Positions 1 through 63,968 of a DNA stretch of 64,000 nucleotides are shown here, in pieces (the stretch's first letter is position 1; every line of letters starts with the position of its first letter). The notes under the pieces are model-generated. The model was given only the letters and a program-made list of their open reading frames with translations. It was not told the origin of the DNA and searched no databases. The stretch is from positions 64,001 through 128,000 of IMG/VR virus record IMGVR_UViG_3300021375_000007, one strand, 5' to 3'. A program made the translations under genes and the position numbers. The stretch comes from a virus.

Positions 1-1084
1 CTTTGATACTCGATTCAATAGAATCTTCGGCACCTAAGAAATTTAAAAATTTATATCCTACTTGCTGAGCTACATTATTAATATATGATTTCCATTTATT
101 ATATGCAGGCTTACCTTTTAATTCTTTGAAATAATTTGTTCCTGAATCTACTGCACCGTCAATACCTACCGGAAAGAATGATACCGCCGGTACAGGTCCG
201 CCTGGAAATTTAGTATCATATTTTGGTAGTTCTTTGTTTCCGTTAAGATAATTTATAACGGTATATCCTAACCTTTTTGCAATTTTTGCTGTACTAGCTT
301 CATATGATTTATTATTACCATAAAAATATCTCGGACCATCATCCACATCTTGATCGGCTGGTGCTGTAGATGATGCTTCGTTTAATATTGATTTGATATC
401 ATATGACTCTATAAAACGTTCTATTTGCTCGGCTTGGGATGCATCTGATGCAAGTACCTTCTGGACCATCCCGTAGACCTTAGGATCACTTATACCGGTT
501 ATATCCTTGAAGCTTTTTTCATCTGCTGTCGCAAGCACTTGTCGCAATGCAGTACCACTCATCTCTCCATCATATCCAGGAATATCAATTTCAACATGAG
601 GAGCTACGATTACATATCCATGCGTCGCCAATCCTTTCATTTCTTCGCCTTTCTTGTAAGGTTGGAAATATCCAGGGCTACCATCTTTTTTGGTATATGA
701 TAATCTACCAGCATCCTTTTTACCATACATGATAAGTAATGCTGTAGTATCAGGATCAAATTGGTCCGTGATTTCAACTGGTCTATATGGATTAGTTTTT
801 ACTACTTGCCCTGCAGGTACTCCCATGGCTGATATAATTGATTTTTTTTGATCAAATGTAAATGGTGATTTATCTTTTAGCTTACCTTTACTATCCATGT
901 TATCAGCTGTTGCAATAAAAGTATTTTCTTTGCCAAATTGCTTTGCTAACCAATCATATGCTTCTTTATGATGCTTACCGAAAGGTTGGAACCTTCCGGG
1001 GTAGATTGCAATTACTTTATCAATACCATTATCTTCAGTGATAATGCGTTCTGCTAACCAAGTACCTAAATCCATCTTATCCAT
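1..1084 (-). CDS. Cytidylyltransferase/nucleotidyltransferase (HIGH superfamily) domain protein, truncated by the left edge of the window
   Basis: Not in track. Manual translation from ATG at 1084: MDKMDLGTWLAERIITEDNGIDKVIAIYPGRFQPFGKHH...SPFTFDQK...MSGTALR. GRFQP-x-H and SGT-x-R motifs; frame open to position 2. Confidence 0.7.
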   Translation of the reverse strand, partial: MDKMDLGTWLAERIITEDNGIDKVIAIYPGRFQPFGKHHKEAYDWLAKQFGKENTFIATADNMDSKGKLKDKSPFTFDQKKSIISAMGVPAGQVVKTNPYRPVEITDQFDPDTTALLIMYGKKDAGRLSYTKKDGSPGYFQPYKKGEEMKGLATHGYVIVAPHVEIDIPGYDGEMSGTALRQVLATADEKSFKDITGISDPKVYGMVQKVLASDASQAEQIERFIESYDIKSILNEASSTAPADQDVDDGPRYFYGNNKSYEASTAKIAKRLGYTVINYLNGNKELPKYDTKFPGGPVPAVSFFPVGIDGAVDSGTNYFKELKGKPAYNKWKSYINNVAQQVGYKFLNFLGAEDSIESSIK

Positions 1085-1096
1085 TTATTATATATA

Positions 1097-1639
1097 TTAT
1101 GAGAATCCGCTATTAGATAATATTACATATCCCGGATCATTCACATTACTATTAATTACCGAGAGGAATGCATATTGAGCAGTTGCTGACTTAGATATAG
1201 CACCGTCAATTTTACGTACCGAATTTGCACCTTCTACGGTAACTGTGCCAGTCGACGTTATCTTTTTTATATAATAAATACGTCCATAATTACTAGCGAC
1301 GGCATTAGGTGGTAACTTAATTGTAACCGTACCACTAGTGGCATCTATTAATAGTAACGTAGAAACATCAAAATCACTATCCGACAATGTACTAGTACCA
1401 CCGCTATAGGTATATACATTTGGTATATGTACGTTTCCAGACATTACGGTATCACTAGCTATTGTAACCGCACCGTCTAGAATAATATTACCATCTTGTC
1501 TTATTGAACCTGTAATTTCAACATCATTTCTAAAATGATTAGTATCTTCAGCTCCATCGGTTGATTCTATAATAATCGGAACTCCATTTACCTTTGCAAA
1601 TGTATATCGTTCGTTTTCACTTAAGCTTATATTACTCAT
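1097..1639 (-). CDS. Putative virion/fibre-associated protein
   Basis: DATSGTVTIKLP...GRIYYIKKI...IDG motif typical of phage fibre C-terminal domains; Ser/Thr/Gly rich. Confidence 0.45.
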   Translation of the reverse strand: MSNISLSENERYTFAKVNGVPIIIESTDGAEDTNHFRNDVEITGSIRQDGNIILDGAVTIASDTVMSGNVHIPNVYTYSGGTSTLSDSDFDVSTLLLIDATSGTVTIKLPPNAVASNYGRIYYIKKITSTGTVTVEGANSVRKIDGAISKSATAQYAFLSVINSNVNDPGYVILSNSGFS

Positions 1640-1647
1640 ATATACCC

Positions 1648-4005
1648 CTAAATTGGTGAATCATTATTATATGCAGCTGCGATGCTACCAAATACACTAT
1701 CATTATCAAATGTAACATTTGTTATGCTGGAACTTATAAATACATTGACTTCACAAGATCTTCCTACATTACTATTTGGTATTAATACATTTGTAATAGG
1801 TCCTACGGCGGCTGAACTATTATTGTATGGAGCTGTCTTAAGTTCCATATTTAATGTTACTGAACCTGTATATCCTGGTTTCTGCCCACCGGTACCATCA
1901 AACACCAACATAACACCACCCGCTTCATCGGGATCATCTCTAAAATATGATGCACTATTCGACTGCCCTACTTTAATAAGTGTTTCTGCAAAATTTGTCG
2001 CGGTTACTAATCCCTGATTACTTAGATGAAAATTAGAAGATGATATTTCCAATTTACCGCCTGATCCTGATATAAACTGATTATTGGCATTTCCTAAAAA
2101 GAATTTATCGGTAACTACTTCCAATCCTGCATTAGGACCGGCCGTACGGAATCGGAAATAACTTCCGGAATCTTGTACTAGCTCTAATCCTACTCCACCA
2201 TCTACGTAATCATTTGTTTCATTTGGTATTACCGATCCAGAGAACATCATCCATCCAGATCCTGATCCTGCAGATGCAGATGTAAATCCATTATATCCAA
2301 TTGATCGTATAAATCCCGAGTTCTGTCCTGACTGCTGAATACCTTCACCAACTCCCGAACCTATATATTGGGATCCCGTAATTAAATTACTATTTCCTTG
2401 TATATAAAGATTTTCTCCGGAGAATACTGCTCCATATATAAATGAAGTTAATGCGGCTGGCGTGCCTTGATAATCTAAATATTCAAATCTAAACGTTAGC
2501 GGTGTATTTAAATGCTGAGATGGTATTCGAATATCCATTCTTGCAAAATTAGGACTAAACCCAGTTTCAACGTTAGTTCTTAACGATATATCTGCAATTG
2601 TCCAACTTCCGCCACGCACTATAAAATATATAGTAGCTCTTTTAGTTTCATTCGATTCGAATTCAAATGTAGTATCTTGATATGCCTGGGCAGGTGTCAC
2701 TGTTAATGGTGCATTTGGACTAGTTGATATTGACCCTATTAACGTACCATATATTCCGCCAGACTGGTAATCCGTACTTTCAATTGAAGTAGGTACATAA
2801 TCCATATCAGGTATTACCTGTGAGCCGCTTATATATACATCTAATCGCATTGAATCGGTATTACCAAATGAATCAGTAATATTAGCTGGGCCAGGAAATA
2901 CCGCGGTACTATAATGGCCAAATTCTAAAATATATTTAGTTCGCTTTTTTAATTCTGGCATATGGCCCGCGTCTGATAGCAGATTGAATGCAATAGCCTC
3001 TCCATTTGAATATGCCCCGGCCGGGGTTAATTCAGCACCACCCATTATATTGCTAGGTTCATATGCTACTGATGGACTGGCCATTCCACCAACACCACTT
3101 GCAGACCAATTATCAGTTATGTCTGGCAAATTAACAAATAATCCTGTTGATGGATCTGATGCACCAAATATTGGATTAACTGAGCTAGGTAATGAACCTG
3201 TAGTTAATTGTTCTTGCTGCTCTAATACCGTTAATCCTAAATCTATAAAGTTACCATATGAACCACCTGGCTTATAAGATGTTCTAATTGCATATACATC
3301 ACCTGTCGCAGGATCTAAATCCGATATTACAATTTGCGCAAAGCTCTGCGATTGTTGCGTATATACTGTTGCTTGAGGTAATATAAAACTTGATGTGAAA
3401 TTTGTCGTAGGTACAGGCGATTGGCCGGTCGGTCCGAAAGATGTAAATGAGTATGGAGCAAATTGCGCGGTAGGATCTACTGGCGTCAAATCAATTCCAT
3501 AAAATACAAATCCAGCGCTGGTATTAGTTAGTATGGCATTGCAAGTAGTACTATTAGTAATGCTTGTTATTTGAAACTGAAACGAACCGCTTAATTGAGT
3601 TTGGCCGGTTGTAGCTAATTCACCAGTGGCCACTGTCATTGGAATAGTTAGCTCAGCTATATTAAAAATTTTGTTAGTACCGTCATCATGTACTACCATG
3701 CCAGCTGGGGCTTCTACATAAGGATCTACAACGGTAACGGTACCTCCGACCATTGATGCTGATAATGCAAATCCTGTAAATGTTAATATACTACTATATG
3801 GCGCACTAATATTGCCTTCTTCGCCACTTGCATTTAACTGAACATTATTAGGATTATTTTGTGAATTATTTGAATTACCACCGCCGCTATTTCCAGGAGA
3901 ATTATTTCGCTCGCCAATAAATACAGTTCCACCGCCACCGCCGCCTTCTTCTATCGGACCTTGTGGTGGCAGGAGATTACGAAATAACAGAGGATCATTT
4001 GGCAT
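1648..4005 (-). CDS. Large putative virion structural protein
   Basis: 785 aa, repeated TGS/SGS motifs shared with neighbouring baseplate proteins; AAAGGA just upstream of ATG. Confidence 0.5.
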   Translation of the reverse strand: MPNDPLLFRNLLPPQGPIEEGGGGGGTVFIGERNNSPGNSGGGNSNNSQNNPNNVQLNASGEEGNISAPYSSILTFTGFALSASMVGGTVTVVDPYVEAPAGMVVHDDGTNKIFNIAELTIPMTVATGELATTGQTQLSGSFQFQITSITNSTTCNAILTNTSAGFVFYGIDLTPVDPTAQFAPYSFTSFGPTGQSPVPTTNFTSSFILPQATVYTQQSQSFAQIVISDLDPATGDVYAIRTSYKPGGSYGNFIDLGLTVLEQQEQLTTGSLPSSVNPIFGASDPSTGLFVNLPDITDNWSASGVGGMASPSVAYEPSNIMGGAELTPAGAYSNGEAIAFNLLSDAGHMPELKKRTKYILEFGHYSTAVFPGPANITDSFGNTDSMRLDVYISGSQVIPDMDYVPTSIESTDYQSGGIYGTLIGSISTSPNAPLTVTPAQAYQDTTFEFESNETKRATIYFIVRGGSWTIADISLRTNVETGFSPNFARMDIRIPSQHLNTPLTFRFEYLDYQGTPAALTSFIYGAVFSGENLYIQGNSNLITGSQYIGSGVGEGIQQSGQNSGFIRSIGYNGFTSASAGSGSGWMMFSGSVIPNETNDYVDGGVGLELVQDSGSYFRFRTAGPNAGLEVVTDKFFLGNANNQFISGSGGKLEISSSNFHLSNQGLVTATNFAETLIKVGQSNSASYFRDDPDEAGGVMLVFDGTGGQKPGYTGSVTLNMELKTAPYNNSSAAVGPITNVLIPNSNVGRSCEVNVFISSSITNVTFDNDSVFGSIAAAYNNDSPI

Positions 4006-4093
4006 TACAGTTCCTTTGAGGTTGTATCACATATTTCGAAAACTTCTGAAGTGATTGTGTATTAAATATATTAGGGATATATAGCATTGTTAA

Positions 4094-4753
4094 TCATCTC
4101 TCTTCTATCAAGCCCGTGAATAGTTCAAACCCTGGCATTGATATCGGTGGTGCTGTTGTCACTGGTGTACATGTAACAGATGCGCCGCCCGATCCGGTTA
4201 CTGTTGTTTGCACATTAAATACATCTACCGGCTGCAAGTATGGCTGGACTACTTCTTGTATTGCTATAGTAGGTTGGCGCGTATATATAATTTCATTATT
4301 ATTACGTGCTAGCGGTTGTACTGTAATTGGTCTCTGCCATAATAAATTTGGAATCTGTTTGAAATTAGGACTCTCACCATCCGATGAAAATGGATATTGT
4401 TCTCCTGTTTCTGGATTAACTCGTGCACGGCTAGCTAAATATACTATAGCAGGGCCTGGCGAGGTATTAGGATAAATATATACTGATACTACACGAGTAC
4501 CATCAGCCTCACGATATTTTAATGGCTCATAATATATAGGAGTTCCATTATAATCTAATATTTCTATGTATATTTCAGCTCCATCAGCAAAATTTCTAGG
4601 ATGTGCTCGTAATTTAAATAAATTTTTACCAGCTTGAAAATTATCTGGAAAATCTACTATTCTAAAAAAGTCTAAAGATAATGGATCTGTATCCACTAAA
4701 TCGTAAGGTAAATCTTTTAATCCAACATATGAAACTTTTTTACGTAATGACAT
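4094..4753 (-). CDS. Putative structural protein (start reassigned to MSLRKK)
   Basis: ATG at 4753 follows late motif ATATTTAT (4767-4774); the track start overlaps the upstream gene. Confidence 0.45.
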   Translation of the reverse strand: MSLRKKVSYVGLKDLPYDLVDTDPLSLDFFRIVDFPDNFQAGKNLFKLRAHPRNFADGAEIYIEILDYNGTPIYYEPLKYREADGTRVVSVYIYPNTSPGPAIVYLASRARVNPETGEQYPFSSDGESPNFKQIPNLLWQRPITVQPLARNNNEIIYTRQPTIAIQEVVQPYLQPVDVFNVQTTVTGSGGASVTCTPVTTAPPISMPGFELFTGLIEER

Positions 4754-4773
4754 GGCTACCTTTAAAATAAATA

Positions 4774-7700
4774 TCAATCATATGATATTTTCGAGTATCC
4801 AGACTCCTTCTTGATTTCTATTAAACTATCAACGATATCTCTCATTGCATCAATATGGGATATACTTAAAATAAATCCAAATTGTGATTTTAAGTAATCA
4901 AATAGCATATACATTGAATTGAGATTATCTGAATCTAAATTACCAAATCCTTCATCTATTGCTATAAAGTTGGGACGAGGTAAACTAGATATATGAATTA
5001 ATGATGCTCGTATCGCAAGACTTGATATAAATTTTTCCATGCCAGATGTCAATTCCAATGGCCAATAATTATCAGTATCATATACAATATAAGCATTTAT
5101 ATTTTTGCCATCTGTATTAAGTAGGATCGTAAATTCAACTATTTGAGTTAATATATTATTTACCTCAGCTTCAATTTGTGGCAATGCCTTAGTAATTAAA
5201 TCATATGGTACTCCATCACGCTTAACAGCTTTAAGATAATATTCATATCCAGTATATGATTGCTCTAACTCAATTAATCGGTCAATTGATTTTTCAACGT
5301 CTGTTTTAGTTTTTTGGGCTATAATTAATCTAGGTCGTAATTTTGATAGTGTACTTTCAATTTCATTAATCTCGGATTCAGTATCACTTAATTCAGATTC
5401 AATTATTACTATTTGCTCATTTAACTCTTTATTAGCTTTAACTATTTCTTTTTGCTCTTCAGCCTTAGCGAGAAGATCTATATATTTATCTAAATTCCAT
5501 TTAACTGCTTGGTATTCAGAATTAATCTTACTTAATTCATATTTAATTGATGATTCTTTTTTAATTGCATCACCTAAATCAGATTCAGCCGTACCTAATT
5601 CAGATACCAATGTATTATATGAATTCTTATTATATATACTACTTGAATATGTAATTTTATTAGTTAAATCATCAATCTTACTAGTAATATCCGGAATTGA
5701 TTCTGATTCTATAATTGCCGTTTGCACTATTGGATTTGAAGTGCAATATGTACAATTTGGATCATATTCATGTGATTCCAATTGAGATGCCAGTGACTCT
5801 TTATGTGATAATATATCTTGCTGTACCTTAAGATTACCATGCAGTGATTTGATATAATATATTGCAGTTTCACATTCTTCTATTTTCTCAGGTAACCTAT
5901 CTGCAATTAAAATATCATATGCAGCACGTGTAGTCTTTATTAACTCTTCTGTTTCCTTTAAATTTATATCCCAGTCATGAATCGTACCTTCAAGAATAAC
6001 AGCAGATTGAGTGAAATGTGAATATTGCCCCTGCAGGTATTTTATATCCGTCAGCTCAGAATCTACCGGCTTTAAATCTTTAGTAGTATTTAATAACTCG
6101 GTTGATAATGCAGTACGTATTTCAATTAGGCTATTCCGCTCTTTATCATATTCTTGTAATGAGGCTGAAACTGAATTTATGGTTGTAATTGCATCGGATA
6201 GTTCCGTAGAATAATCCGTACGCTTATGTTCCTTTATAGCTGCAGCTGTTTCTTTTATTTCTTCATTTGCAATTTGGTATTGCTGATCAAATATATCAAT
6301 ATCTAAAAACTGAGATAATAAATCTTTTCGCTCTCGCTGAGATTTATCAATAAATCCAGTATTGTTATTTTGCAATGATAATGCCGTTAAAATAAAGTCA
6401 TCATATGTACCTAAATACGTACGTATAATTTTATTAGTAGAATCACGTTGGTCTCCGTTAAGTAGAACTTTATTGCCTTCCTCATCTATAGACCAAAAAT
6501 TAACTAATACTCTCACATGGCCATGATTATTTTTAACGCCACTTCGTTCTATATAATATGGCCGGCCTTCTAATTCAAATTCAAACTTTGATTGAAAGGA
6601 TGATTTTTTATTATTTAATACATGGCGAGCCTTTGATGTCCTAGAACATTTATCAAAGCAACAAAATGATAATGCATCCAACAATGTCGATTTGCCACTG
6701 GCGTTTGGTGCGAATAATCCATATGTACCAGTCATATTAGTAAAATCAATTTTATTGGAATCTCCATAACTAAACATATTAGAAAACTCAAACACTTTAG
6801 GGATCCATGTTACATTCCGGTTTGCAACTAGTTCTGGTATCTTACTATGGACTTTTCGATTAATGTGTCTAATAGCATCTAGAACCGGCTCTGATATAAC
6901 ATAATTATCAGTTAAATATTCGCTTATAATTTTATTCTGAGATTCAACTTCTCTATAATCAGCAAAATTAATTTTTCGTGTTACCGCGCTTTGATTAAGA
7001 TTATTAATCCGTTGAATGCTTAATTCCTTAACCTTATATTTTTGTTTAAGCTCAGTTACAATTAATTTCAAGGCACTAGTATCCGTATCCGTTACTTTAA
7101 GGCGCAGTCTTGGCTTGGGTGGTACATTATTAGATGCATTAACGATCTTGCCATTTTTAACCTCAAACGTATAATAACCATAATCATTTTTAATTGGTAC
7201 GAATTCAGATTCTCTTTGAGCTACATCCCATACCATAATACCATGTACTAAAGCCTCCCCATGCGATTGCTGTATTAATGAACCTGGATATGCTATAGTT
7301 TTTTCATTGTTAAGATATTGTGTTTTATGAATATCACCTAACAAGACTAAATCATGGCCAGCAAATAAATCATTAGTAACATGAGTATTTGATAACGATA
7401 TACCTAAATCAGTCGTGGCATTATGTACTGCGCCGTGGTGTAATGCAATCTTGTTTGTGCCTTCGAACTCAGCACCACGAATAAAATCAGCCGGCTTATC
7501 AAATACCGACATTACATTGAATTGGCAATCGCCTAACTCATATATATCAGTATCCTTAAGATAATATACCGATGGATGATTAATAGCATTAACAATTGGA
7601 GTAATGGCATCTAACCGATAACTATTATTTAAATTGCAATCATGATTACCAGCAATTATAATGGTAGGAGCGATTTCAGCACATTTGGTAAAGAATTCAC

Positions 7701-35528: not shown

Positions 35529-35545
35529 TCTTTAAAGGTTATATC

Positions 35546-48598: not shown

Positions 48599-48785
48599 AT
48601 TTTTGTTTAACTATTTTAGCACATTTCTCATAGTCTTCAATAGACTCATAATACCGTAATACCACCTCTGGATCTTCATGGTTGGCAGGAAGATAGAACA
48701 CCTCCTGCGCAGCAAGCTTGTCGTAGTCTGTAGTGCCAATTAATAGGCGGTAGGCGTTGTGGTAGGACTCTTCGATTTCAGTCAT
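48585..48785 (-). CDS. Small protein with UVR-like EDYEKCA motif
   Basis: YYESIEDYEKCAKI; start reassigned to MTEIEE. Confidence 0.55.
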   Translation of the reverse strand: MTEIEESYHNAYRLLIGTTDYDKLAAQEVFYLPANHEDPEVVLRYYESIEDYEKCAKIVKQKLGSR

Positions 48786-48870
48786 GTTTTTGGTTTCTAT
48801 CATATTCCTTCTTATATCTATACAGCGGATATGCAATTATTATTAAGAGTATCAGTGCTATTACCATCAT
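48778..48870 (-). CDS. Small membrane peptide (30 aa, not in track)
   Basis: MMVIALILLIIIAYPLYRYKKEYDRNQKHD; starts directly after junction repeat. Confidence 0.45.
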   Translation of the reverse strand: MMVIALILLIIIAYPLYRYKKEYDRNQKHD

Positions 48871-48882
48871 CTTTGTTTTGGT

Positions 48883-49116
48883 TTAATATCCATAATTTAC
48901 TTTAATAGCCATTGCTTGATGTTCGCCAGCCTTACCAAAATCTTTCATCACCTCAATAGCAATATCTGTATCTAATTGGCAGATGATGTTGGAAAAATAT
49001 CCTAACATACTTTCCTTATCAGTTTCATATTGTGGAGGAAACTCTAACATAAATCCTTCTATCTCTGATGTAATGGTATTTACTTTACCTTGTGTTTTTT
49101 TATCTAACTTACTCAT
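48883..49116 (-). CDS. Hypothetical protein
   Basis: In junction-repeat array. Confidence 0.55.
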   Translation of the reverse strand: MSKLDKKTQGKVNTITSEIEGFMLEFPPQYETDKESMLGYFSNIICQLDTDIAIEVMKDFGKAGEHQAMAIKVNYGY

Positions 49117-49117
49117 C

Positions 49118-49909
49118 TTATATGTATTTTACAATTGTTGTATGTCCTATTTTAAATTCACCATCTGCATCGATAAGATATTGTCCACTAGGTAAAGTGT
49201 CAATATAATAATACTTACCACTAGTTGCTTTACCTTCGATATCAATTCGGTCTTGATGTGTATGACCTACAATCTGAATATAATTTTTCTTTAAATCGGT
49301 ATTCTTATTTGAACGTTGAAGTGAACGTGGTCTAATCCAAATTGGAGATTGCCAATCATCATCGCCATATCCATTTGGGCTGATGCCTGTATTGTTTCTA
49401 TCATAACCTGCATTGAAGGTAAATTCGTTTGGCTTATAAAGAAATAAATCATTTAGGAAATCTGATATCATTGATTCATCTACGTTATCTTGCTTCCAAA
49501 AACCTACATCTTTTAAGAATCGAGAACTAACACCAGCATGAGTACATAATCTATTACCGATTAGTACAGATAGTTGAAAGCACTTTTCATTTTCTCTAAA
49601 GAATTGTTCGTATTGAAATGACATAGTTGATTGAAAGCCTGATGTACTACCTCGATCTTTAATACCTGGCCAATAGTGAATATCATGATTTCCTATCAAA
49701 AGGTATACTTTCTTGGTAGGATCTAATTCTTGTTTCTTTTTGAACTCAACTATCTTCTTAATATTATCTAATTGAATTACTGCCGGAATGTCAAATGAAT
49801 CGAAATAATCTCCAATGAAAACAATGTTATCAGCATCTTCGTGTTCGGTAACAATATCTTTCCATACATCTCTACCATGTATATCTCCTATGTATATTGT
49901 TTCATTCAT
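49118..49909 (-). CDS. Calcineurin-like metallophosphoesterase
   Basis: IGDIHG, IGDYFD, IGNHD, THAG, VGHT. Confidence 0.9.
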   Translation of the reverse strand: MNETIYIGDIHGRDVWKDIVTEHEDADNIVFIGDYFDSFDIPAVIQLDNIKKIVEFKKKQELDPTKKVYLLIGNHDIHYWPGIKDRGSTSGFQSTMSFQYEQFFRENEKCFQLSVLIGNRLCTHAGVSSRFLKDVGFWKQDNVDESMISDFLNDLFLYKPNEFTFNAGYDRNNTGISPNGYGDDDWQSPIWIRPRSLQRSNKNTDLKKNYIQIVGHTHQDRIDIEGKATSGKYYYIDTLPSGQYLIDADGEFKIGHTTIVKYI

Positions 49910-50033
49910 TCTTCTCGTTTAATTTTCTAATTTCTTCCAATAATGCCATAGCAACTCTTACATCAGAATCAAACATTTGGGTCAAATGCCTCTCATAATT
50001 TATAAGGTCGTTTAGTGTTTTTATCTTATCCAT
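49902..50033 (-). CDS. Small hypothetical protein (43 aa, not in track)
   Basis: MDKIKTLNDLINYERHLTQMFDSDVRVAMALLEEIRKLNEKNE; starts after junction repeat. Confidence 0.5.
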   Translation of the reverse strand: MDKIKTLNDLINYERHLTQMFDSDVRVAMALLEEIRKLNEKNE

Positions 50034-50063
50034 CTTCTTTGTTTTGGTTTACTCACAATGTTG

Positions 50064-50116
50064 TTACAACTTCACCTAAGACACATTAAAACGATGTCTT
50101 AGCCAATAGTTGTATG
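50064..50116 (+). mobile_element. attC-like integron recombination site 1
   Basis: TACAAC-5nt-CTAAGACA...TGTCTTAG-6nt-GTTGTA. Confidence 0.6.
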
Positions 50117-50129
50117 CAATTAAAAAAGA

Positions 50130-50259
50130 CATACAACAATAAATATAAGTAATGCGGAGTATAGTCTTTCTTTATTCCAGTGGTTACTTCGTCAAGATGG
50201 GTGGCTTACTATACCATCATACCAACAAGTTACCGCACTACCCATATTCTTTGTTTTGG
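50130..50259 (+). mobile_element. attC-like site 2 (long, degenerate)
   Basis: CATACAAC-5nt-ATATAAGTAATGCGG...CCGCACTACCCATAT-5nt-GTT. Confidence 0.5.
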
Positions 50260-50264
50260 GTTAA

Positions 50265-50723
50265 TTAAAGTTCCTTAACAACTTTCATCTTTTGAGCTAA
50301 CACCCAAGTTCCACCTTGAGATTCGGGTCTATTGTAAAATTCATAATCCTCCACTTCTACTTCCACCCAAACCCTACCCTTCTCAGATAGATGTGGTGCA
50401 TTTTTTTCAAGAGTACAATGCCAGCCTTTTCTTTCGGCAAATCCTTTCTTTGAGTGGAACTCTGCATCCATCCATACACCCATGGGTATTCTACTTTTTT
50501 GATTTATGAATAATGGAGATAAACTACCATCTTTCATTTTTCGTATTAACTTATATGCTTTCAGGTTCTTTGTTTTTACTTCAATCATATCAGGATTCAT
50601 ATAAATGTGCATTAATGTGTTAGCTTTATCACATTCAATGTATTCTAAGTCATGGATATACTCTGATTCTTTTAATAACTTATCCTTAAGTTCTTGACTA
50701 TTTACAATTATCTTAATACTCAT
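50265..50723 (-). CDS. Hypothetical protein, probable fusion of two small genes
   Basis: Degenerate junction repeat at 50567-50576 inside the ORF. Confidence 0.55.
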   Translation of the reverse strand: MSIKIIVNSQELKDKLLKESEYIHDLEYIECDKANTLMHIYMNPDMIEVKTKNLKAYKLIRKMKDGSLSPLFINQKSRIPMGVWMDAEFHSKKGFAERKGWHCTLEKNAPHLSEKGRVWVEVEVEDYEFYNRPESQGGTWVLAQKMKVVKEL

Positions 50724-50735
50724 CTTTGTTTTGGT

Positions 50736-50963
50736 TTAATTTATTAATTCATCTACATTAATACTATGCACATCTAACAAATCACCCAATGCTTTTCTGT
50801 ATGTTTCTAAGTTAAAATCAGTTTCATCATGTTTCCATTCCTTCCAAAAATTATGTTGTAGTTCCCAGATAAACATGGCCATGTCTGATGACTTAAGAGC
50901 TCTTCGCATTGCCATTTCTTCATCTCTGTTTGCTAAATCGTATTCTAATATTCCTTTACTCAT
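50736..50963 (-). CDS. Hypothetical protein
   Basis: Early promoter upstream; ends at junction repeat. Confidence 0.55.
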   Translation of the reverse strand: MSKGILEYDLANRDEEMAMRRALKSSDMAMFIWELQHNFWKEWKHDETDFNLETYRKALGDLLDVHSINVDELIN

Positions 50964-50990
50964 CTTTCTTATTCTTTAAAGGTTTATACT

Positions 50991-51021
50991 TAAAGATAGG
51001 GAATTAAATTCAAAGTACTAA
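50991..51021 (-). promoter_or_regulatory. Early promoter
   Basis: TAG-N19-TATCTTTA, then ACCTTTAAAGA. Confidence 0.6.
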
Positions 51022-51318
51022 ATCTTCGTCTTTTTCGTCTTTTTCTTCCATATAGCGATGCATCCTATCATCCCACATCGGGTCAAGTATTACCCAAAAA
51101 AAGCCAATTGCCCCAGCTGGCGCTGGAACCAACATCACGACCCAATATGCAATTACTTGAAGTGGATATGCCATCTCTATATTGCATGGAGGTATGCCAT
51201 TCTCGATTTGCCAGGCTCGGGTAGTAGCGGCTACCATATACGTCATTATGAATACGGCAGTTGAGAATATTGCAAATGGTAACCAGATTTTTACTCTTAT
51301 CCAATCGATCTTTTTCAT
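51010..51318 (-). CDS. Membrane protein
   Basis: Two hydrophobic segments. Confidence 0.5.
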   Translation of the reverse strand: MKKIDWIRVKIWLPFAIFSTAVFIMTYMVAATTRAWQIENGIPPCNIEMAYPLQVIAYWVVMLVPAPAGAIGFFWVILDPMWDDRMHRYMEEKDEKDEDLVL

Positions 51319-51330
51319 TTTCTTTTTGAT

Positions 51331-51429
51331 TTATATAAAATAAAAACATATTACTATACCTGATAGCATTCCAAACCCTAAACCTAAAACATAACCACCT
51401 AGGAATGCATTCTGTTGTTCTTTACTCAT
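51331..51429 (-). CDS. Small membrane peptide (32 aa, not in track)
   Basis: MSKEQQNAFLGGYVLGLGFGMLSGIVICFYFI; GATGAGTAA overlap with upstream stop. Confidence 0.4.
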   Translation of the reverse strand: MSKEQQNAFLGGYVLGLGFGMLSGIVICFYFI

Positions 51430-51601
51430 CTTCTAAAAATTCTTTAATGTCAGAAATTGCTATCCTTAATCCCCGTTTTACACCTTCATCATATGCATTT
51501 TCTAAAGGAGGATTTGTATTTATCTTCTCTTCCGATTCCCAAAAACTAAATCGAATATCCAGTTTTTTGTTGAGGTGTTTTATTAGTTTTTCTTTACTCA
51601 T
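51422..51601 (-). CDS. Hypothetical protein (start reassigned, MSKEKL)
   Basis: The track ORF's 5' part overlaps tRNA-Tyr; ATG follows junction repeat. Confidence 0.55.
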   Translation of the reverse strand: MSKEKLIKHLNKKLDIRFSFWESEEKINTNPPLENAYDEGVKRGLRIAISDIKEFLEDE

Positions 51602-51612
51602 CTTCTTTGTTT

Positions 51613-51698
51613 TGGTTGGGGAGGAGGGATTCGAACCCCCATGCCTCGCGAGGAACAGATTTACAGTCTGTCGAGCCAGCCAATTGCTCAACTCCCCA
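51613..51698 (-). tRNA. tRNA-Tyr (GUA)
   Basis: TGGGGAG/CTCCCCA acceptor, ACAGA-CTGTAAA-TCTGT, long variable arm, TTCGAAT loop, encoded CCA. Confidence 0.93.
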
Positions 51699-63749: not shown

Positions 63750-63968
63750 CCCGAGGCTTTTACGACATGGCCTCTTTTTACCGTTAGCTCAGGGTGCCTA
63801 TTAGGCAGCCATTGCTAGTTCAACTTGTTCGCCAGTTGTGCGTATGATCTCCCAATGCTCCTTTCTTGCTGTCAAAACCAGGCACCCCCATATTATTAAT
63901 ACTCTAGTGGAGGTGGAGGGAATCGAACCCTCGTCCAAACAAGCGGCTGACATTAGTCAGACGATCAA
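63750..63968 (-). ncRNA. ssrA: Circularly permuted (two-piece) tmRNA; outer ends approximate
   Basis: T-arm and acceptor 3' strand (63936-63908) precede the 5' strand GGGGGTG (63889); G3-U70 pair; tag ORF GEQVELAMAA* at 63833-63801. Confidence 0.88.

Follow-up and report, generated by a model that had tools for sequence, protein, structure and literature searches.

How large lytic phages gain and trade small accessory genes, likely for host takeover and anti-defence, is poorly understood. One mechanism, acting within close T4 relatives, has come from the promoter-early stem-loops (PeSLs) of T4-type phages (Arbiol et al. 2010, PMC2839356; Comeau et al. 2014, PMC4122927), for which mini-circles have been shown. 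Another class of repeat, the start-associated sequences (SAS) of Cluster K mycobacteriophages, is suspected of a role in translation initiation (Pope et al. 2011, PMC3203893). These two are the nearest described systems to the element reported here, a short repeat that we will refer to as the junction, situated in a 64,000-nt stretch of viral DNA (the window; positions 64,001 to 128,000 of IMG/VR record IMGVR_UViG_3300021375_000007) that belongs to one virus record of 153,457 bp, from an uncultured T4-like phage. We propose, with a probability of roughly two in three, that the junction is a portable stop-start adaptor in arrays of small accessory genes of T4-superfamily phages. Cassettes of one gene each, with the junction at their borders, are replaced and reordered, and phages very distant from each other share them.

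The junction resembles PeSLs in being a short conserved direct repeat of T4-superfamily phages, located between small non-essential open reading frames (ORFs) of hyperplastic regions, and in that the end points of insertions, deletions and replacements between related phages fall in the repeats; the likeness would extend to exchange by homologous recombination without a dedicated recombinase, as we infer for the junction. With SAS it has in common that many mutually unrelated non-structural genes have a short asymmetric repeat, in one orientation, a few nt ahead of their ATG, that the upstream stop is sometimes inside the repeat, that host genomes lack it, and that gene families occur with or without one.

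The junction and the exchange of cassettes

Some 200 small genes, unrelated to one another, have the junction at positions -16 to +9 of their start codon; it lies on the coding strand in every case, and its copies cluster in arrays. The junction can be written as TAAACCAAAACAAAG(0/3 nt)ATGA(GTAAA), that is TAA-ACC-AAA-ACA-AAG-(0 or 3 nt)-ATG-A(GT-AAA), and its bounds are sharp. A logo built from 306 core copies in other phages is conserved from T-16 to about +9 with nothing beyond, and agrees with the extended consensus given in a preliminary description made from the sequence of the window alone. Among 95 zero-spacing copies outside the query selection, T at -15 stands at 0.85, A at -14 to -12 at 0.97 and A at +3 at 0.94. 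The spacing to the ATG is 0 in 222 copies and 3 in 32, and is never 1 or 2.

At least 120 IMG/VR contigs contain an exact match to the 20-mer AACCAAAACAAAGATGAGTA, often with 2–7 copies within a few kb, and motif loci encode homologues of the replication and structural proteins of this phage at 40–85% identity. A 13-mer occurs 9–19 times per genome in five large relatives, on the coding strand only and in 1–3 tight arrays, with 0 matches for the reversed control. Prokaryote genomes (596 Gb) give 49 scattered matches to the 18-mer that includes the ATG, which is about the chance level. A few prokaryote contigs with two nearby junction copies resemble mis-binned phage DNA; those in question (L149, L159, L163 and L147/L151, binned as Campylobacteraceae, Chlamydiales, Aenigmatarchaeota and Promethearchaeia) are probably phage contigs mis-binned into metagenome-assembled genomes. 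Junction arrays are often found at contig ends (G001 1-5414; G002 1-833; G004 375022-380231; many loci), as would be expected if assemblies break in hypervariable or repeated stretches.

The genes that follow the junction are diverse. The 269 motif-preceded ORFs, with a median length of 65 aa, fall into 100 singletons and 96 families, and 69 of the 96 families are mixed, with motif-bearing members alongside others without it. We therefore reject the idea that the motif is the conserved 5' end of one gene family, as about 196 families are involved.

Motif-bearing relatives with a gp23-type capsid (T4 superfamily) range from 125 to 380 kb, and the capsid family PF07068 was found in all five genomes tested; a bS21 gene is present in three of the five. 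Bacteroidetes have been predicted as hosts of lake phages with bS21, in a paper that makes no mention of the motif (PMC9723584). The nearest cultured capsids are those of Microcystis phage Mel-JY01 (58%) and Flavobacterium phage immuto (55%), and junction arrays are absent from both of these phages and from a 484-kb uncultured relative. The distribution of the junction is thus patchy, since phages with only 29% capsid identity have it and closer ones do not. The carriers are a broad set of T4-superfamily phages, and their hosts are probably Bacteroidota. Among GenBank phages a DNA search with the 6-kb locus returned only tRNA-Leu look-alikes, and protein searches with a 592-aa protein of the window and with family F31 (ORF8, below) found nothing; relatives sought via a 696-aa flanking protein were likewise not found.

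Genes of the array in the window have homologues at other loci with different neighbours, and the DNA matches are single-gene blocks. When breakpoints are taken as the internal ends of matches at least 90% identical and at least 120 nt long across all loci, 107 of 253 lie at the junction, against 8.6 ± 2.8 at random, so that breakpoints do fall in the motif, a check suggested in the preliminary description. Expressed per gene start, the rate is 0.49 for motif-bearing starts and 0.08 for others. The neighbours of motif-preceded ORFs are conserved at 0.23, compared with 0.47 for other small genes.

Two comparisons illustrate the pattern. L087 and L112 are 99.8% and 98.2% identical on the two sides of one differing cassette of about 140 nt, and the difference begins directly after ..CAAAGATGA and ends at the next junction. 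At the other extreme are G004 (380 kb, complete) and G006 (156 kb, 96% complete), whose capsids are 29% identical and which have almost no DNA similarity in a 20-kb core stretch. These two genomes have five cassettes of 141–310 nt in common at 96–98% nucleotide identity, arranged a-b-c-d-e in one and d-c-e-a-b in the other, and every match starts within 7 nt of a junction.

The array in the window

The features of the array, all on the minus strand, are as follows.

51613..51698 (-): tRNA-Tyr (GTA), ARAGORN; Rfam RF00005 ends the tRNA body at 51616
51593..51617 (-): junction copy 1, AACCAAAACAAAG-AAG-ATGAGTAAA, spacing 3, starts ORF1
51422..51601 (-): ORF1, 59 aa, no family; its stop is the TAA inside ATGAGTAA of the next start
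51331..51429 (-): ORF2, 32 aa, hydrophobic; half-junction AGAAGATGAGTAAAG at its start
51010..51318 (-): ORF3, 102 aa, no family, without junction
50972..51000 (-): copy of a second repeat family (..ATCTTTAAGTATAAACCTTTAAAGAA..), promoter-like, 9 genome copies
50736..50963 (-): ORF4, 75 aa; half-junction at its start
50715..50739 (-): junction copy 2, TTAAACCAAAACAAAGATGAGTATT, spacing 0; its TAA stops ORF4
50265..50723 (-): ORF5, 152 aa; phrog_12224 over residues 53-152
50565..50579 (-): decayed junction GTAAAAACAAAGAAC, read through in frame within ORF5 as VKTKN
50243..50264 (-): junction copy 3, TTAACCCAAAACAAAG-AAT-ATG; a structured element follows, no real gene
50050..50245 (-): structured non-coding stretch between copies 3 and 4; minimum free energy -59 kcal/mol, z -3.6
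50025..50051 (-): junction copy 4, TAAACCAAAACAAAG-AAG-ATGGAT, spacing 3, starts ORF6
49902..50033 (-): ORF6, 43 aa; orthologues in L094, L038 and L124 with other neighbours
49118..49909 (-): ORF7, 263 aa, calcineurin-like metallophosphoesterase (PF00149, E 3e-11)
48883..49116 (-): ORF8 (family F31), 77 aa; half-junction at its start
48862..48886 (-): junction copy 5, TTAAACCAAAACAAAGATGATGGTA, spacing 0; its TAA stops ORF8
48778..48870 (-): ORF9, 30 aa, hydrophobic

The 11-mer core CCAAAACAAAG is found exactly, on the minus strand, at 51605, 50724, 50249, 50037 and 48871, the positions first reported for it, and these five are the sole copies in the entire 153,457-bp genome, all of them confined to 2.8 kb. 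Allowing one mismatch gives 8 matches against 1.55 expected, a count reached in none of 100 shuffles, and the four genomic occurrences of GATGAGTAA all lie inside the same 2.5 kb. The gap from the 11-mer to the ATG is 3, 0, 3, 3 and 0 nt for copies 1 to 5, within the 0–3 nt range originally given. Three copies adjoin the preceding stop, as had been noticed: the TAA of the block is the stop codon of ORF4 and of ORF8, and the stop of ORF5 lies 5 nt before copy 3. The motif tails described at the ORF starts 51429, 50963 and 49116 are present, and comparison with orthologues identifies these three GATGAGTA tails as half-junctions. The genes between copies are, as stated earlier, family-less small ORFs plus a metallophosphoesterase, except that ORF5 matches phrog_12224 (unknown function). 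Because the five copies are the only ones in the genome, the motif is not a general A-rich start context; across 205 predicted starts the context is A-rich only, with a peak at -13 to -10 and no such word, and we reject the host's general initiation context as its source.

For ORF8 we obtained a sample that does not depend on the motif, as an exact 27-mer inside this gene retrieved 23 metagenome contigs. The F31 gene bodies are 91% identical, and the flanking 90 nt fall into 15 unrelated classes upstream and 14 downstream. With at most one mismatch allowed, 15 of 22 copies of F31 have the junction core at their 5' end, and 20 of 23 have it at the 3' end. Independent contigs share four of the arrangements, which speaks against an origin as assembly chimeras. 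In L234, where F31 is 98.7% identical, it follows an ORF6-like gene and precedes an ORF5-like gene, the metallophosphoesterase is missing, and the order differs from that of the window; gene order in relatives is not fixed.

Among orthologues of the array genes, the junctions are full, hybrid or decayed, at either end. The ORF2 orthologue in L109/L073 carries a full junction, the ORF4 orthologue in L108 has one on each side, and L082, at 80% nucleotide identity to ORF7, has a full junction after the gene; the ORF9 orthologue in L094 is without an exact junction. ORF5 and its relative in L234 have residues 1–49 in common and then diverge at the decayed junction, which reads VKTKN in the window (compare TKTKM, junction frame 0) and VNQKEDE in L234 (compare LNQNKDE, junction frame 2). 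The PHROG match of ORF5 begins at residue 53. ORF5 is probably two cassettes fused, and this one case suggests that junction decay can fuse cassettes into a longer gene.

The array is flanked by tRNA-Tyr, whose 3' AACCA matches the opening bases of junction copy 1 exactly, its CCA being the first 3 nt of that copy; the use of the CCA, claimed at the outset, agrees with ARAGORN and Rfam. This tRNA-Tyr 3' end has 0 matches in other viral contigs, and in none of 40 other motif loci does a tRNA adjoin the array, so that the tRNA anchor proposed for such arrays is not general. The contact would be best read as one local join made through the common AACCA.

Within the array are two further elements. 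The structured stretch holds a 45-nt block at 50109-50153 (-), consisting of ATTACTTATATTTA and a hairpin with an 8-bp stem and a 13-nt loop, and a second hairpin at about 50076-50102, which elsewhere often follows the block with a variable stem and a conserved loop, TCGTTTTAATG. A 31-mer of the hairpin block has exact matches in 50 further viral contigs, as a rule one per locus, and is intergenic, with the next ORF 10–190 nt downstream; the junction is present at only 4 of these 50 loci. The hairpin region (50050-50245), which occurs once per locus and in most cases without junctions, is an element separate from the junction. The block may be a promoter/operator or a terminator-promoter module. 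Rfam has no match in 50050-50250, and a placement of the hairpin block between tRNA-type genes is not borne out by ARAGORN. Neither the junction nor the hairpin block fits the Bacteroidota-type promoter consensus by eye, and a sigma-70 promoter and terminator scan of the array remained at shuffle level.

The second repeat family (..ATCTTTAGATATAACCTTTAAAGAA..) is found on the minus strand at 35540, 36463, 43965, 48562, 50984, 54223, 54933, 58838 and 60977, with an ATG following at a distance of 3–10 nt. The gene ahead of it often ends in GGATCGCGTTGA, and the 20-mer of the repeat is present in 14 other viral contigs. It matches a AACCTTTAA-N12-ATG form of junction, so that the genome seems to carry two junction types. 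As the promoter-like repeat (about 50972-51000) and the structured element (about 50050-50245) are inside the array, the array is not one promoterless string, and the picture of promoterless genes accumulating behind a tRNA is too simple for it.

Translation start, proposed mechanism of exchange and alternative explanations

In operons, overlapping stop and start codons (ATGA, TAATG) place the start of a gene on or next to the stop of the one before it, which gives translational coupling. The junction contains stops in all three frames. With the A of the ATG taken as 0, these are TAA at -15 (frame 0), TGA at +1 and TAA at +5. Of 257 junctions, 84 have an upstream gene of 30 codons or more that stops at +5; such a gene stops at +1 in 63 and at -15/-18 in 41. 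The region from -21 to +8 closes all three frames at 67% of motif starts compared with 33% of other starts, and an upstream gene ends within -18 to +8 at 82% and 51% respectively. A spacing of 3 preserves this three-frame property, and spacings of 1 or 2 would break it. Unrelated upstream proteins end in ..LNQNKDE (48 cases) or ..KPKQR (xxKPKQR); since these C-termini are encoded by the junction, their similarity owes nothing to common protein descent.

The zero-spacing block places A at -3, -6, -12 and -13, has a single G before the ATG, and contains no Shine-Dalgarno core. In Flavobacterium johnsoniae, adenine at these same four positions raises translation, and ribosomes ignore Shine-Dalgarno sequences (PMC6847099). 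From the stops, the coupling and the A positions we infer that the block would act as an initiation and coupling signal. In this model the mRNA would present an unstructured, A/C-only initiation region to ribosomes that do not use Shine-Dalgarno pairing, and the block would couple termination upstream to the next initiation, so that a cassette could be expressed at any landing site and in any upstream frame.

At the DNA level, the direct repeats would provide short stretches of homology on which the phage's general machinery of recombination and replication (RecA/UvsX-like) acts, with no dedicated recombinase involved. Deletions and replacements would result, and possibly also excised circles able to insert again at whichever junction a co-infecting phage offers. 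This genome has a RecA/UvsX-like gene, and two others give weaker matches. The preliminary description saw no recombinase in the window, and this extends to five junction-bearing genomes: tyrosine recombinase PF00589 has 0 matches in G000, G001, G002, G004 (100% complete) and G005, although 14 of 14 control genomes matched, and in the same five junction-bearing genomes serine recombinase PF00239 also has 0 matches and RecT was not found. Together with the lack of an inverted repeat, this points to short-homology exchange by general machinery, as proposed for PeSLs. The dual role first suggested for the junction is retained as regards translation start and cassette exchange point, and not as regards a site-specific mechanism.

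Several points weigh against the stop-start adaptor. Both its initiation and its recombination function are read from position and comparison, and 19–25 nt of homology is short for RecA/UvsX-type exchange. Selection following random recombination would also leave breakpoints at gene boundaries, and as the junction makes up the whole boundary in arrays, cause and marker are not fully separable. The contigs compared are all metagenome assemblies, in which a short repeat could cause some chimeric joins. A merely optimal leader needs no exact Cs at -5, -10 and -11, and their exactness hints at specific recognition or constant homogenisation. As the nearest cultured relatives (immuto and Mel-JY01) are without the junction, it is not required for translation in such hosts. 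The host itself is assigned indirectly, via bS21, the nearest cultured relatives of the capsid and the A-rich start context lacking Shine-Dalgarno sequences; the best capsid match is deposited as a Microcystis phage, and the phage has a tmRNA of the permuted (two-piece) type at 63801-63967 (-) (Rfam RF04321, 70 bits; ARAGORN tag GEQVELAMAA).

The constancy of the block could instead reflect an operator for a trans-acting factor, such as a small RNA, an RNA-binding protein of phage or host, or an endoribonuclease, by which the mRNAs of the array would be jointly switched on or off in their translation or stability, in the manner of T4 RegA/RegB on early genes, with shuffling as a by-product of repeats at gene boundaries. 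This would account for the exactness of non-A positions in more than 300 copies, with capsid identity among the phages of only 29–53%, for a block that spans the ribosome-binding window including the AUG and first codons, for clustering in accessory-gene arrays, and for the patchy distribution within the clade, which is expected if the factor is encoded by only some phages. We consider it unlikely all the same. It leaves the use of three-frame stops and the spacing rule of 0 or 3 unexplained, and the 69 mixed families show that the same family occurs with or without the junction across phages. No candidate gene for the factor was identified; the RegA family PF01818 is unmatched in five genomes, although control genomes were also unmatched.

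Much less probable is the integron-like capture put forward in the preliminary description, in which a site-specific recombinase would insert and excise promoterless cassettes at the junction, in an array placed behind an anchoring tRNA gene. In its favour, the cassettes hold one ORF each, have a single conserved site at their borders, vary in order and are shared horizontally, and copy 1 does abut the CCA of tRNA-Tyr. However, the junction-bearing genomes, one of them complete, lack a tyrosine or serine recombinase, and the site is no attC-like hairpin: the block of 19–25 nt is almost only A and C, has no inverted repeat or folding potential, and nothing is conserved beyond it. In addition, tRNA genes do not adjoin the arrays of the other 40 loci, this array contains a promoter-like repeat and a structured element of its own, and hybrid and half junctions resemble homology-driven joins. 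That there is nothing special to explain, the motif being a chance cluster of an A-rich word, the host's general initiation context or an assembly artefact, has next to no chance of being correct. The genome is indeed A-rich before starts, and the 18-mer has its scattered chance-level matches in many prokaryotes, but all five genomic copies lie within 2.8 kb, the shuffles never reach the observed count, the 20-mer recurs in at least 120 viral contigs with reversed-pattern controls at 0, and identical arrangements recur in independent assemblies.

The stop-start adaptor can be extended to a bolder proposal, which we hold as tentative and somewhat more doubtful than probable, namely a recombinase-free exchange network across very distant T4-superfamily phages. 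Any cassette between two junctions could depart, perhaps in circular form, and insert into any junction that a co-infecting phage carries, where it would be expressed at once because the block stops all three frames and restarts translation; decay of junctions would weld multi-domain genes. The exactness of the block would then be that of a standard connector for a common accessory-gene pool, which local translation needs alone would not demand.

Comparison with known systems

A search of the literature with the 11-mer gave unrelated primer matches only and with the 16-mer none, and no paper describing the junction was found. If our proposal is correct, the junction would be a concrete means by which genes pass from one phage family to another in aquatic systems of the Bacteroidota type, and it offers a visible path from cassette to fused multi-domain gene. 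It might also find use as a natural strong start signal for Flavobacteria that is independent of Shine-Dalgarno pairing, and as a sequence tag for accessory-gene arrays in metagenomes.

Integrons (IntI, attI, attC) are likewise arrays of single-ORF cassettes with a conserved bounding site, variable order and horizontal exchange. The junction arrays differ from them in lacking an integrase and a structured attC, in that the site of exchange is the translation start itself, and in being situated in lytic-type myovirus genomes. From the overlapping stop and start codons of operons the junction differs in that one fixed block of 19–25 nt provides both all-frame stops and a start, and is reused between hundreds of unrelated gene pairs.

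SAS are closer, although their sequence GGGATAGGAGCCC contains a Shine-Dalgarno core able to pair with 16S rRNA, whereas the junction is without a purine core and fits initiation independent of Shine-Dalgarno pairing. Neither a role as recombination breakpoint nor sharing between distant phages is reported for SAS. A PeSL, in turn, is a transcriptional element of some tens of bases, made up of a sigma-70-like early promoter and a terminator stem-loop. The junction is a much shorter, translational stop-start block of 19–25 nt with no promoter or hairpin, overlapping the coding ends of both neighbours; because it spans -16 to +9 of the ATG, a promoter within it could not serve the gene it precedes. 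PeSLs act within close T4 relatives, whereas the junction is nearly letter-for-letter alike in phages with only 29% capsid identity.

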